DNA of 58,998 bases from a virus (taxonomy: Duplodnaviria; Caudoviricetes), in IMG/VR virus record IMGVR_UViG_3300032295_004123, positions 1 to 58,998 of that record. One strand, written 5' to 3'. Positions 1,322 through 54,840 of this stretch are shown in pieces. The translations under genes were made by a program, and so were the position numbers. Each line of letters begins with the position of its first letter. Position 1 is the first letter of the stretch. The notes under the pieces were generated by a model. That model saw only the letters and a list, made by a program, of their open reading frames with translations, did not search any database and was not told the DNA's origin.

Positions 1322-1988
1322 TCTAGCATTCCTCCTTCTAATTTCAGGTTGTGGTTCAATGTCAACCGTAACTGAAGGAGACGAGGTAGTATCTAAAAGT
1401 ATATCTACAGTTTCAGATTATTCTGGAGCTAAAACTACTGTTCAAGTTGTAAACGTAGATTTAGAAAAAGTATTTAAAATGTACCCAAGCCTACAAGAAA
1501 AAAATGTAGGTTTAGGATTTGCTGAATCTGTACTTGATTATTTAGATGAAACTAATCGCTTTGATTTTACAGAAGAAAAATCTGAAATCAAAGAAAGAAT
1601 GGTAACACAGTTCAAAGCATCTAAAAAAGGTGTATTTGAAGAACCGATTGATGGTAAAGGTAAAATTAAAGCTGCTCGTTACTTTGTTTATGTAACTGTA
1701 GCTGATTTTGCTGTTGATGAGGATGAAACCGTAGTAAAAGGCAAAGCTAAAGTTGTAGTAACTACATTTATTAGACTACAAGTTAGATTTGTAAACGCTG
1801 AAACTGGACAAATTTACATTGGTTCAGGTGAAGGTGAAGCTACTAAAACAGGTGAAGCATTCTTAAAATCATTGGATGGTATGACATTCTCTCAAAGCAC
1901 AGTAGGTAAGGCAACTCGCAAAGCATTAGAAACAGCTAGTACTAATGTAATCGAAAAACTTATCAAGAACGGTGTATTTGAAAATTAA
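1302..1988 (+). CDS. CsgG/TolB_N-like lipoprotein
   Basis: Likely GTG start at 1302 gives signal MKKILGSLAFLLLISG-C (lipobox); CsgG-like motifs TNRF, LQVRFVNAETGQI, GEGEA. Confidence 0.75.
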   Translation: MKKILGSLAFLLLISGCGSMSTVTEGDEVVSKSISTVSDYSGAKTTVQVVNVDLEKVFKMYPSLQEKNVGLGFAESVLDYLDETNRFDFTEEKSEIKERMVTQFKASKKGVFEEPIDGKGKIKAARYFVYVTVADFAVDEDETVVKGKAKVVVTTFIRLQVRFVNAETGQIYIGSGEGEATKTGEAFLKSLDGMTFSQSTVGKATRKALETASTNVIEKLIKNGVFEN

Positions 1989-3321
1989 AATATTAGCATT
2001 CCTGTTTTTACTTGGAGGTTTGTCCTTAAAAGGACAGACCTTCATGTATTCATATATTGACCCATGTACTCAACAAGTACAAACTTTAGCATACGATATG
2101 AGTGCTCCTATTATAGTTTCATACTATGGGCAGACTCGAGCATTTACTTATAATGAGATTTCTAGTGGTGTTTTAGATACGTGGCTTAACCAAGTATATT
2201 TTAATTATACAGCCTCCCCCTGTAGTGAAGTGTTTACTTCAGTCACAACAACATCTACTACAAATTTAACAACCAATATAATTAATAATGTTCTGAATTT
2301 GAGTACAGTTGCATCTATTTCTTCTCTTAACATAGGTGGGAATGTCAACACAGGTAACCAATCAAATTCAAACTCTAACTCTAATGAAGACAATAACAAC
2401 TCTCAGTCAAATATCCCTGGCTCGAATAACAGCAGTAATAACAATAACAACACTAATTCTTTTGGTAATTCAGGCTCAGGTTCTAGTGGGGGTGGGGGTA
2501 ATGGCGAACCTAATTCTGGTGGTTCTAACCCTAGTGAATCTGGCGGGGGATCAACAACAGGAGAGGTTCAAGAAGGAAATAAAGAGGGTGTCCCATCTCA
2601 AGAAAAAGTAAACGAAGCTAAAACAGACCAACAAAAATCAGACGCGAATCAAACCTCTAAAACAACAGCTAAAGCTAAAGCCCAAGTCCAAAAACCAGCA
2701 ATTTTAGTAACTGGTGATATAGTTGGTCTCCAAAAAACAGACGATAAAACTAATGATGCTAGAGGTACATTTTCATATACTAAAGTAAAAGGAGATGGCA
2801 CAGCATCAATTGGCATCTCAGCTGATTACATGATTAGAGCTAGAATCAGTAATATAACTGCAATGAAGTCTTGGATTAGTACTACTCCAAAAGGAAACAA
2901 AGGTATTAATCTTTTATCTTCAGGAATGTCATTTCAACCTGATGCTTGGTCTAATACTACAATGTTTATTAGAGTGAACAGCTTAAAACGTTTTACTGCC
3001 ATTTATGGTGCTGCTGGTAGTGCTGGGGTTTTATATAAAGAACCTATTATATCAACTCTAGCTGTAGCTGGGTTCATGTATAAAGGTAAACTATATAAAA
3101 ATATAGATGGTACTCTAATTGCAGCTGGTGTTTACGCTCCTTACTCAAAATATTATACTGAATCTTGGTTTGGTTCTAAACCTATTATCATCCCCTTTTT
3201 TAATGTAAATTATAAAATGACTAAAACATTTGGGGTTGGGTTAACTGGAGGTGGAACTTATTTAGCGGGAGCCAACGTTTTAAACTATCAAGTATTATTA
3301 GGTGCTAAACTTGTACTATGA
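1972..3321 (+). CDS. Secreted protein with N/S/G-rich linker and putative C-terminal outer-membrane beta-barrel
   Basis: Signal peptide ending LKG|Q; low-complexity linker; alternating amphipathic strands ending LGAKLVL. Confidence 0.55.
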   Translation: MYLKIKILAFLFLLGGLSLKGQTFMYSYIDPCTQQVQTLAYDMSAPIIVSYYGQTRAFTYNEISSGVLDTWLNQVYFNYTASPCSEVFTSVTTTSTTNLTTNIINNVLNLSTVASISSLNIGGNVNTGNQSNSNSNSNEDNNNSQSNIPGSNNSSNNNNNTNSFGNSGSGSSGGGGNGEPNSGGSNPSESGGGSTTGEVQEGNKEGVPSQEKVNEAKTDQQKSDANQTSKTTAKAKAQVQKPAILVTGDIVGLQKTDDKTNDARGTFSYTKVKGDGTASIGISADYMIRARISNITAMKSWISTTPKGNKGINLLSSGMSFQPDAWSNTTMFIRVNSLKRFTAIYGAAGSAGVLYKEPIISTLAVAGFMYKGKLYKNIDGTLIAAGVYAPYSKYYTESWFGSKPIIIPFFNVNYKMTKTFGVGLTGGGTYLAGANVLNYQVLLGAKLVL

Positions 3322-47043: not shown

Positions 47044-47793
47044 ATGAAATTGAACGAATTAAAAGTTCTAGTAATAGGGGAATCGTGCATTGATAAATTT
47101 ATTTATTGTAGCACTAAACGTTTATCACCTGAAGCCCCGGTTCCTGTACTTAATCCTGTAGAAACAACGATTAATGGTGGGATGGCAGCTAATGTGGTTG
47201 CTAATGTTAAAGCATTAAAACCTGATGTTCAAATAATACATTTGACTTCCTATTCTAAGGTAACTAAAACTCGTTATGTTGATTCTAAATCGAATCATAT
47301 GTTTATTCGAGTCGATGAAGGTGAAGAAACAATAACCCCTATTGAGTGGTCTGCTGATGTTGAGAATTTTATTAAAAATTCAGATATTGTAATTGTAAGT
47401 GATTACAATAAAGGTTATTTAGATAATACTAATTTATGGACTATAGGCCATTTAGCTAAATTATCTATTTTAGATACTAAACGTAAATTAACTCAAGAAA
47501 TAGCTGATAAGTTTACTTTTATTAAATTAAACGAAAGTGAATTTCAAAATAATAAACATCTTAATCCTGATAATCTTATTGTTACTTTAGGATCCAAAGG
47601 AGTACTTTACGACGATAAACTCATACCCCAGGAAAATCCTAAACAAACCATAGATGTATCAGGAGCTGGAGATACATTTACTGCTGCCTTTATTCTTAAT
47701 TATTTTGACTTTGGGGATGCTGAACAAGCTATTGTGTGGGCAAATGTAATAGCCAGTAAAGTAGTTTTAAAAAGAGGTGTGGCTACGCCCTGA
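47044..47793 (+). CDS. RfaE/HldE-like PfkB sugar (heptose) kinase domain
   Basis: RLSPEAPVPV, GGMAANV, KTR, SDYNKG, DVSGAGDT. Confidence 0.88.
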   Translation: MKLNELKVLVIGESCIDKFIYCSTKRLSPEAPVPVLNPVETTINGGMAANVVANVKALKPDVQIIHLTSYSKVTKTRYVDSKSNHMFIRVDEGEETITPIEWSADVENFIKNSDIVIVSDYNKGYLDNTNLWTIGHLAKLSILDTKRKLTQEIADKFTFIKLNESEFQNNKHLNPDNLIVTLGSKGVLYDDKLIPQENPKQTIDVSGAGDTFTAAFILNYFDFGDAEQAIVWANVIASKVVLKRGVATP

Positions 47794-48821: not shown

Positions 48822-49124
48822 ATGAGTGAAAAACGAGGAAACACAGTTAAATTAATTTATGATTTTGAAACTAGTTGTTGTGAAGTTAAACTTAGTAATG
48901 AAATTTGGTACAGAGTTACCGCTAGAGAATTTCGAAGTTTTGATGGCGAAAGACGTTTAATCAGTTATAATAATTCCAATGAACCAATCTACACACCATA
49001 CACTGGCCCAGTCTACCTTTATAAGACAAATCTTGTGGTGGCACGAAAAAATTCAAATCAAGTTAGGTTTGAAGCAGATACCGACCCCAGACAAAATCAA
49101 CAATCCACCTCAAGATTTTATTAA
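48822..49124 (+). CDS. Hypothetical protein
   Basis: WYRVTAREFRSFDG ORF. Confidence 0.55.
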   Translation: MSEKRGNTVKLIYDFETSCCEVKLSNEIWYRVTAREFRSFDGERRLISYNNSNEPIYTPYTGPVYLYKTNLVVARKNSNQVRFEADTDPRQNQQSTSRFY

Positions 49125-49254
49125 AGCTAGAACTGTTTACCCCCCTAATTGGGAAGCGAGGCAGAAAATGAGTCTTAAAGAAAAATGTGATTACTTTAAT
49201 AGTTGGGCACAAAAGTTATAGTATTTATGGATGACATTTTTGAAGACTTTATAG

Positions 49255-49437
49255 ATGAAGAAGATTCCCAACAAAAGGAGAAGCACCGAAGAGGGTCATA
49301 TGGCAGCTTTAGTGAGGAGGAAGATGATTACTAAAAATCATGGTAATCTCAAAGAGTATAAAAGAAAAAATAAACATTATAAGGGTTGGGATTCCAACCC
49401 TTCTTTAACTAGATTTGGTTTATTGGAAAATTTTTAG
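49255..49437 (+). CDS. Small basic protein, ArfA/BrfA-like ribosome rescue factor candidate
   Basis: YKRKNKH matches the ArfA YxRKxKH motif; terminator-like hairpin inside the 3' coding region. Confidence 0.45.
   Translation: MKKIPNKRRSTEEGHMAALVRRKMITKNHGNLKEYKRKNKHYKGWDSNPSLTRFGLLENF
49381..49406 (+). terminator. Intrinsic terminator-like hairpin within the ORF
   Basis: AAGGGTTGG-gatt-CCAACCCTT-cttt. Confidence 0.65.
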
Positions 49438-54626: not shown

Positions 54627-54818
54627 ATGTTTGAAGAGATTCAAGAGTCACACAATGTCTATTTGGACACAGCTTTCGAGGGTGTAGTAAAGTCAATTTG
54701 TCTGGAATTAAATAGAGATCAGGAGTTTACTTTTGATCAGATAAAGGCTTACTTGAAGTTGAAGTTGGATTTAGAGTTAGAGTCTTTTAAAAAAGATTGG
54801 GTAGGAGAGGACGAATAA
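54627..54818 (+). CDS. Hypothetical early protein
   Basis: Preceded by TATATTTA (54595). Confidence 0.6.
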   Translation: MFEEIQESHNVYLDTAFEGVVKSICLELNRDQEFTFDQIKAYLKLKLDLELESFKKDWVGEDE

Positions 54819-54829
54819 TCCTCTCTTAC
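54801..54829 (+). terminator. Hairpin at gene end, possible terminator
   Basis: GTAGGAGAGGA-cgaataa-TCCTCTCTTAC, 11 bp with one G-U pair; weak U tract. Confidence 0.5.
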
Positions 54830-54840
54830 TTAAAATAAAA

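Follow-up and report, generated by a model that had tools for sequence, protein, structure and literature searches.

To our knowledge, back-up ribosome rescue factors that depend on a release factor have been described only in three narrow groups of bacteria, these being ArfA, BrfA and ArfT, and we know of no such factor in Bacteroidota. Here we describe a small phage gene, open reading frame (ORF) B, which occupies positions 49255-49437 on the + strand of the virus record IMGVR_UViG_3300032295_004123 of IMG/VR. The whole record of 58,998 bases, with an estimated completeness of 38%, was analysed and is called the window below. ORF B appears to represent a new phage-borne candidate family with the gene design of arfA and brfA. 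We tentatively propose that its product is a rescue factor in the style of ArfA and BrfA, made from a messenger RNA (mRNA) that ends before the stop codon (a non-stop mRNA) and controlled by transfer-messenger RNA (tmRNA). By analogy with the described systems, we give this proposal a little under an even chance of being right.

The arfA gene is described as carrying a stem-loop that leads to transcription termination or RNase III cleavage and so to a non-stop mRNA, the tail of the full-length protein being hydrophobic and unstable; the KH motif is said to bind a pocket in the channel through which mRNA enters, and to be the one sequence feature common to ArfA and BrfA (PMC8012679). In the account of brfA, the gene has 71 sense codons with a rho-independent terminator inside the coding region, and the product, about 62 residues long, receives an SsrA tag and builds up only where trans-translation is lacking (PMC6881298). 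The premise of the initial annotation of this locus, that arfA and brfA are expressed from non-stop mRNAs, matches the descriptions in these two papers. ArfT of Francisella tularensis, to which the ORF B product is likened by description, is presented as a basic factor of about 40 residues that recruits release factor 1 or 2 (RF1 or RF2) to non-stop ribosomes (PMC8012679, PMC6514570), but these descriptions give no non-stop mRNA design for it. A review from 2021 considers that more such factors may exist and that they are hard to find by sequence (PMC8012679). In a 2024 survey, arfA is listed for none of 1,956 genomes of the Fibrobacterota-Chlorobiota-Bacteroidota (FCB) group (Table 1 of PMC11633108).

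ORF B and its protein family

ORF B is an open frame of 60 codons from the ATG at 49255 to a TAG at 49435-49437. It encodes the protein MKKIPNKRRSTEEGHMAALVRRKMITKNHGNLKEYKRKNKHYKGWDSNPSLTRFGLLENF, in which 19 of the 60 residues are K, R or H, and the initial annotation was right to call it a basic ORF of 60 amino acids (aa) with the sequence YKRKNKH, this being residues 35-41 (49357-49377, + strand). Relatives were found in 16 protein clusters, 11 viral loci and 87 metagenome stretches (80 of them kept), and an exhaustive profile search at E <= 0.001 gave 181 representatives at 50% identity, all of 35-84 aa. The frame is also kept, with 55% identity, in L001, a syntenic relative located on a viral contig of 118 kb. 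The family consensus is ...ERHLAQIIRRKMI[TQ]K....KK.Y.RK.KHK..., within which RRKM is invariant across alignment A2. In close relatives RRKM is encoded by AGG AGG AAG ATG, and in distant members by CGT CGA AAA ATG, CGA CGT AAG ATG and others. Among 50 distinct sequences of the close clade, the entropy of the three codon positions in frame B is 0.53/0.52/0.90 outside the overlap with a second frame, ORF A (described below), and 0.43/0.17/0.58 inside it, with the third position highest in both. Given the many homologs, the varied codons for RRKM and the entropy pattern, ORF B is by these comparisons a real gene under clear purifying selection.

A conserved part of the protein is predicted to be a helix, TEEGHMAALVRRKMI, at residues 11-25 (49285..49329, + strand), which is seen in alignments A1 and A2 and in the AlphaFold2 model. 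This model, made with 150 sequences, has a single helix at residues 11-25 with a predicted local distance difference test (pLDDT) score of about 93, the rest being coil, and a mean pLDDT of 70.8. The Y-x-R-K-x-K-H motif lies in the basic part that follows. Its first half, [YF]xR, is present in 146 of 150 family representatives, and the full [YF]xRKxKH in 49 of the 150; YKRKNKH is kept by the window, by locus L013 and by roughly one third of the wider family.

No family that names the window protein was found in PHROGs, NCBIfam or Pfam. A search of 185,579 bacterial and archaeal species genomes with the pattern RRKMI[TS][KR][DNV][HK] gave 23 stretches and no relatives; as this was a single pattern, it does not establish absence. 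A distant ORF B member had no match in the phage collection by tblastn.

A hairpin conserved inside the reading frame

Codons 43-50 of ORF B (49381..49402, + strand) form an in-frame hairpin, AAGGGTTGG-GATT-CCAACCCTT, which has a 9-bp stem and is followed by CTTT. The TAG starts 32 nt after the stem, in agreement with the initial annotation, which had placed a 9-bp hairpin about 30 nt before it. The tail CTTTAACTA (49403..49411, + strand) contains U residues and is the putative transcript end, read from the sequence, though it is a weak one. The ten codons and TAG behind the hairpin (49403..49437, + strand) would be missing from an mRNA terminated there; they are not conserved, the tails differing with the type of stem.

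The window hairpin alone has a folding energy of -13.5 kcal/mol, and the + strand of the whole 59-kb window has only 11 perfect-stem hairpins at a free energy (dG) <= -9. When the 51-nt stretch around the hairpin was compared with shuffled sequences it gave z = -2.43, and 5 of 200 shuffles were as good; a 121-nt stretch was not unusual (z = -0.29). The stronger evidence comes from relatives. Loci were anchored on the RRKM codons, and the best simple hairpin was sought 45-130 nt downstream, in 71 distinct segments of 130 nt. Of the 71, 54 have a hairpin of dG <= -10 that is complete before the stop codon is reached; in the window clade, the 54 distinct hairpin-bearing sequences all keep this strong hairpin at the same place and in frame. 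They contain 15 different hairpin sequences, starting 64-66 nt past the anchor, which fall into four stem types: GAGGGGC/GCCCCTC, GAGGAGC/GCTCCTC, GTGAGGACC/GGTCCTCAY and AAGGGTTGG/CCAACCCTT. The peptides that the hairpins encode differ accordingly (WRGESPS, WRSESSS, REDRKGPH and KGWDSNPS). The tails, which read ATTATATTTAT or TATATTCT in relatives, vary between stem types, and the stop codon lies anywhere from 10 to 68 nt past the hairpin.

RNAalifold, applied to 36 distinct sequences, found changes on both sides in three of the six consensus pairs. This is an underestimate and is limited to six pairs, because MAFFT misaligned the 5' arms of the type I and type II stems by one column (alignment A4). 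Since the hairpin is conserved at the same place with four unrelated stems, we consider it to be more than a chance feature of the window: as far as comparison of relatives can tell, it is conserved as a structure inside the frame of the window clade. A hairpin within the ORF, as in arfA, is thus present in ORF B by sequence and by conservation.

A sister clade with hairpins of textbook terminator form

A profile of the ORF B family (A2) matches immuto26A_124, a 49-aa protein of the isolated Flavobacterium phage vB_FspM_immuto, at E 1.3e-3 for that genome. The relatives of immuto26A_124 (alignment A7) are homologous to the window family (hhalign probability 93.6%, E 2e-7) and form a sister clade. 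In all 21 of its distinct viral loci, an A-tract, a GC stem and a T-run follow directly past RKDKHKKK, and the stem always precedes the stop codon; an example is AAGAAAAAGGGC...GCCCTTCCTTTTT. The T-runs read CCTTTTT or TTTTTTT. About ten different stems are used, ORF lengths are between 44 and 108 aa, and the tails bear no relation to one another. In sequence, the sister-clade hairpin is of textbook intrinsic terminator form, and a transcript ending at it would therefore have no stop codon.

The likeness to BrfA (YqkK) of Bacillus subtilis, an RF2-dependent factor, is clearest here. Both are small basic proteins, and the coding region contains a short terminator hairpin, which in brfA is about 9 codons before the stop in the published description (PMC6881298); both have a KH motif in a basic C-terminal part (PMC8012679). 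The phage hairpins are of the short rho-independent terminator kind, most clearly so in the immuto-like clade, where the candidate terminator is found inside the coding region at 21 of 21 loci, while the window has a 9-bp GC-containing stem and, in CTTTAACTA, a weak T-run. ORF B differs in being phage-borne, in having a likely host in the phylum Bacteroidota and not in Bacillus, and in having many relatives with ordinary stops. Three profile searches of the PDB at E <= 10 found no chain named BrfA, the likeness being one of gene design and not of direct sequence comparison.

Similarity to the channel-binding segment of ArfA

The window family can be aligned with ArfA, a factor of beta- and gamma-proteobacteria, by hhalign, which places VRRKMITKNHGNLKEYKRKNKH on a 22-residue segment of E. 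coli ArfA with no gaps; P was 0.042, 0.026 and 0.0074 with growing profiles. When ArfA residues 1-55 were shuffled, 2 of 300 shuffles reached the real score, and when the columns of the ArfA alignment were shuffled, 1 of 220 did. In the sister clade the similarity is stronger. BLASTP aligned KSKKSYTRKDKHKKKG with a 16-residue stretch of ArfA with 9 of 16 residues identical (E 3e-4 for the single comparison), hhalign gave P 7e-4, and none of 220 column shuffles reached the real score. When 177,635 distinct PDB sequences were searched with A7, ArfA was the top match, at E 0.081, and ArfA chains were four of the five matches at E <= 10. We note as a lead only that a metagenome protein 86% identical to immuto26A_124 (P0294) carries the automatic name 'stalled ribosome alternative rescue factor ArfA' at JGI (the Joint Genome Institute); this was the only one of 38 names in the sister-clade search to refer to ArfA, the other 37 being unnamed or hypothetical.

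The aligned part of ArfA is approximately residues 24-53, which include the KH motif. The similarity of the ORF B family to this mRNA-channel segment appears to be weak but specific. It places YKRKNKH in register with Y39-H45 of ArfA, so that Y-x-R-K-x-K-H follows a helix in the same register in both, with an in-frame hairpin past the motif and an unconserved tail behind the hairpin. The hairpins are also alike in position, the stem starting 6 codons past H45 in E. coli arfA and 2 codons past H41 in the window. In the ArfA profile (A5) the motif is part of a block, KGKGSYxRKxKH. The window has the second half of the block without KGKGS, whose absence had been pointed out initially and in whose place the window has NHGNLKE; the sister clade has KSKKS there, reading KSKKSY/TYTRKDKH overall. 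It should be added that A5 is of low diversity, because a scan for diverse ArfA genes gave only Enterobacteriaceae-like copies.

A further difference is the length of the stem, which is about 20 bp in E. coli arfA, where it is also described as an RNase III target (PMC8012679), and 7-9 bp in the phages. Cleavage by RNase III, as in E. coli arfA, was considered as a source of the phage transcript ends and set aside in favour of a terminator: a stem of 7-9 bp seems too short for this enzyme.

Relation to DUF7230

The uncharacterised Pfam family DUF7230 (PF23876) gave sub-threshold matches for 34 of 150 family members at E <= 1, the best being E 1.4e-4, over profile positions 16-38. The 18 matching proteins among 19 tested from the sister clade, and the immuto26A_124 product, scored 12-19.5 bits. 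The cut-off of 27 bits was reached by no member of the family or of the sister clade, and the window protein had no match. E. coli ArfA itself matches DUF7230 at E 0.11. Near neighbours in the ESM Atlas include a DUF7230 cluster (score 0.89), which we again regard only as a lead. The N-terminal halves of DUF7230 proteins differ from those of the phage proteins.

A true DUF7230 gene (46.4 bits) was found in one of 201 sampled bacterial genomes (L260:1480-1710, genome G178). It has 76 codons, and right past IKHKG it contains AAGGGCG...CGCCCTT and GTTTTTT in frame, with 28 more codons before the stop. A true bacterial member thus has an in-frame GC hairpin with a T-run, as in the phage clades. 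The neighbours of this gene are a Fic-like gene (with an HPFTDGNGR motif) and, on the other strand, a restriction-enzyme-like gene.

Evidence against a rescue function, and other explanations

A number of results weigh against the proposal that ORF B encodes a rescue factor. The Pfam ArfA family (PF03889, cut-off 25.5 bits), with which E. coli ArfA as a positive control scores 89.5 bits, did not match the window protein at E <= 1. At E <= 10 it matched none of 29 family members and nothing in the whole record in six frames, and it is not among the 25 listed of the 43 Pfam families matched by 150 members. Searches of the PDB with the A2 and A3 profiles likewise did not find ArfA. The nearest relatives of the window lack the KH motif and read YNRKNKDW or FSRNELKRED. 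The T-run in the window is weak, and the + strand hairpin was not called by a simple terminator scan, because T makes up fewer than 5 of 8 letters in its tail CTTTAACTAG; the only call was the palindromic stem read on the - strand. The initial description of ORF B as an ArfA/BrfA-like candidate is supported by the conserved in-frame hairpin and by the short similarity to ArfA, and weakened by the lack of a Pfam ArfA match and by the loss of YKRKNKH in the closest relatives. Joint conservation of motif and hairpin, which it had suggested as a check, gives an equally divided picture: the hairpin is kept in two clades (54/54 and 21/21) and YKRKNKH is not kept in the nearest relatives.

The extent of the similarity to ArfA is also limited, covering 22-31 columns in a lysine-rich segment, and no hhalign run found any similarity to residues 1-22 of ArfA, which belong to the N-terminal part through which ArfA binds RF2 and activates it on the ribosome. 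Confinement to the channel-binding segment, with nothing like the ArfA N-terminal part, would be expected if the ORF B product bound the empty mRNA channel as an inhibitor or hijacker, blocking tmRNA-SmpB or host rescue or shutting off host translation, with no recruitment of a release factor. We regard this as distinctly improbable: a non-stop design would lower the amount of protein for as long as tmRNA is at work, which is more in keeping with a back-up factor than with a tmRNA inhibitor.

A further objection comes from the distant relatives, most of which have an ordinary stop codon at the point where the hairpin would start. For the family as a whole, and not within the hairpin-bearing clades, this partly agrees with what the initial annotation had named as a refutation. 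In the anchored survey, 16 of the 71 distinct segments, all from distant members, have their stop 66-90 nt past the anchor and only weak folds, and in one more (L012) the stop lies within the hairpin loop. A further sample was taken from the KPSGK subfamily. Of its 57 loci, two had no anchor (L258 and L259) and ten were duplicates or too short, leaving 45 distinct classifiable loci. An ordinary stop and no strong hairpin were found in 39 of these; the hairpin is past the stop in two, the stop is in the loop in one (L223), and a true in-frame hairpin is present in one (L203). Two rows which scored as in-frame (L225 and L227) are anchoring artefacts, the anchor pattern having matched upstream, and are excluded from this count. 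Within the hairpin-bearing clades, a stop before the hairpin was found in none of the 54 and 21 distinct sequences. On present sequences, then, the non-stop design is a mark of particular clades and not of the whole family, and it may have arisen from terminators overlapping the end of the gene. Because distant relatives have ordinary stops, and a few have the stop in the loop, the in-frame position could have begun as an accident of such an overlap.

These findings are among the grounds for another explanation, in which ORF B encodes an ordinary small basic protein, for example one that binds nucleic acid or acts in host takeover. Its gene would be the last of a transcription unit, the hairpin would be the terminator of the unit or a 3' stabiliser, the original stop would have been lost so that the frame now runs on to the following one, and non-stop messages would be a tolerated side effect and no means of control. 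Most distant homologs, with a stop 63-93 nt past the RR motif and no strong hairpin, agree with this, and a stop in the loop of a terminator hairpin, as in L012 and L223, is the expected precursor state. The protein is unnamed in the family libraries, and AlphaFold2 shows only helix and coil. We nevertheless think this explanation rather unlikely. The stems and stop positions have turned over repeatedly, and yet a stop ahead of the hairpin has come back in none of the 54 + 21 distinct sequences that carry it. Tagging and degradation of the non-stop product would be costly for a protein under purifying selection, and the specific similarity to ArfA would be left unexplained.

Finally, in most close relatives not all transcripts can end at the hairpin. 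In L003, L004, L006 and their relatives, a conserved gene for a small membrane protein (M..INYLL.G..FQWFM) is found 10-22 nt past the hairpin and overlaps the ORF B stop. Because the next gene overlaps the stop in most close relatives, read-through transcripts must exist, which is a further point against a simple non-stop design. In these type I and type II relatives the ATG of the membrane-protein gene overlaps the ORF B stop codon (GCATGA, ATGTACATTAA), so the ORF B frame must cross the hairpin in order to reach the next start. This arrangement would suit a translation-sensing attenuator, in which ribosomes on ORF B block folding of the hairpin and the polymerase reads into the coupled next gene, whereas slow translation allows the hairpin to form and transcription to stop. 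An attenuator seems improbable to us, as the window and L013 lack the downstream gene, the next ATG being 17 nt past the stop, and as ORF B is conserved as a protein and not just as a leader. The immuto clade, moreover, retains the in-frame terminator at 21 of 21 loci, although the next gene annotated in phage immuto itself lies 75 nt away.

A sequence after the hairpin, TAGATTTG, is not claimed here as a promoter, because the Bacteroidetes-type pattern TTTG-N18-22-TAnnTTTG is not enriched, with 6 matches against 3.2 expected.

The overlapping frame ORF A

ORF B is preceded by an acidic frame of 35 aa, ORF A (49227..49334, + strand; MDDIFEDF...EEDDY), which was absent from the initial account of the locus. 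It begins directly behind the upstream stop and shares with ORF B the latter's first 80 nt, and its start and end are the same in L001 and in the close clade. The acidic, aromatic N-terminus is conserved upstream of the ORF B ATG, where frame B is often closed. In the close clade, the R-R-K codons of ORF B are frozen as AGG AGG AAG, with third-position entropies of 0, 0.14 and 0.14 where other third positions vary, which fits selection on the C-terminal EEDD of ORF A. Distant ORF B members have no frame A, and one subgroup (L012, L086, L089 and L090) has a different acidic and aromatic peptide in this frame, MxWNDSDVGYTFWDEMWN. Comparison of these loci suggests that ORF A is probably a second real gene, which does not affect the reading of ORF B, and its product might be a partner or antagonist of the ORF B product.

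As frame A begins right after the upstream stop and has a conserved N-terminus, and as one database protein (P0141) is an A-B fusion, it could be supposed that a programmed +1 frameshift fuses the two frames into a single acidic-basic protein and that the hairpin influences the recoding; a heptamer, A_AAA_AAT, lies 9 nt upstream of the window hairpin. We give this very little credence. ORF B starts at a conserved ATG of its own, only ORF B is present in distant members, the single fusion may be a sequencing error, and the heptamer lies a long way past the A/B overlap and is found neither in type II stems nor in the immuto clade. A -1 frameshift at the same heptamer, with its 9-nt spacer and the hairpin, was also considered and rejected, since the -1 frame meets a TAA at once and the heptamer is again absent from type II stems and the immuto clade.

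The window and its likely host

The window has a G+C content of about 31%, and its long frames are all on the + strand. The genes include a family A DNA polymerase, GroEL, ThyX and many sugar-modifying enzymes: ThyX, the polymerase and GroEL lie between 13891 and 43504 (+ strand) together with a long run of genes like those for glycosyltransferases, aminotransferases and sugar kinases, and a PfkB-like gene is found at 47044-47793. Such cargo is unusual for a phage, and suggests that sugars are used to modify either DNA or the surface of the host. The closest relative of the window GroEL (58.5%) is the GroEL of phage immuto, a 160-kb phage, and the DNA runs that contain parts of the window are labelled as lake water or freshwater metagenomes. 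On these two grounds the host is likely to be Flavobacterium-like, in the phylum Bacteroidota. A blastn search with 3 kb of the window gave no match in the phage collection.

Three other features of the window were noted. Upstream of ORF A, two frames at 48822-49124 and 48979-49221 (+ strand) overlap by about 145 nt in the +1 register. In L001 (3571-3873 and 3719-3970) the first is conserved in its N-terminal part and the second in its C-terminal part, and the pair may represent either overlapping genes or a site of recoding. The strongest intergenic hairpin, at 54797-54833 (+ strand), has a 15-bp stem (dG -19.1), lies outside long frames, and has the tail AATAAAAG, with no T-run on the + strand. 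Another hairpin, with a 13-bp stem (dG -20.6), is at 2013-2044 (+ strand), 40 nt into the ORF at 1972-3321.

Proposed function and implications

We propose that the ORF B product has one amphipathic helix followed by a lysine/arginine-rich tail with Y-x-R-K-x-K-H, and that transcripts would end, without a stop codon, at the GC-rich hairpin of terminator type two codons past this motif. If the gene behaves like arfA and brfA, host tmRNA would as a rule tag the protein of about 51-52 residues made from the non-stop mRNA, and the tagged protein would be degraded. The protein would build up only once trans-translation is saturated, as may be the case in an infection or when host defences cleave RNA, and it may conceivably have a role against such defences. 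In ribosomes stalled at the 3' ends of mRNAs, the vacant entry channel would then be filled by the basic tail of the protein, which may also recruit a release factor, this being the least supported step. Termination at the hairpin, control by tmRNA, binding to the ribosome and recruitment of a release factor are all inferred from the gene design and the ArfA/BrfA analogy.

A wider proposal is that the ORF B family, the immuto-like clade and bacterial DUF7230 form one widespread superfamily of ArfA/BrfA type, expressed from programmed non-stop mRNAs. Bacteroidota phages would then carry their own tmRNA-sensing rescue factor, which would free ribosomes when infection or RNA-cleaving defences flood the cell with truncated mRNAs. 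We consider this possible but doubtful. A full-text literature search, supplements not included, found no paper on a phage-encoded factor like ArfA or BrfA, or on DUF7230.

The idea can be tested directly, there being an isolated phage-host pair, immuto on Flavobacterium sp. LMO8. If the proposal is true, this rescue mechanism would extend to viruses and to Bacteroidota hosts, and a basic KH tail followed by an in-frame terminator would be a signature for finding more such factors. It would also suggest that phages manage the ribosome-rescue capacity of their host during infection.

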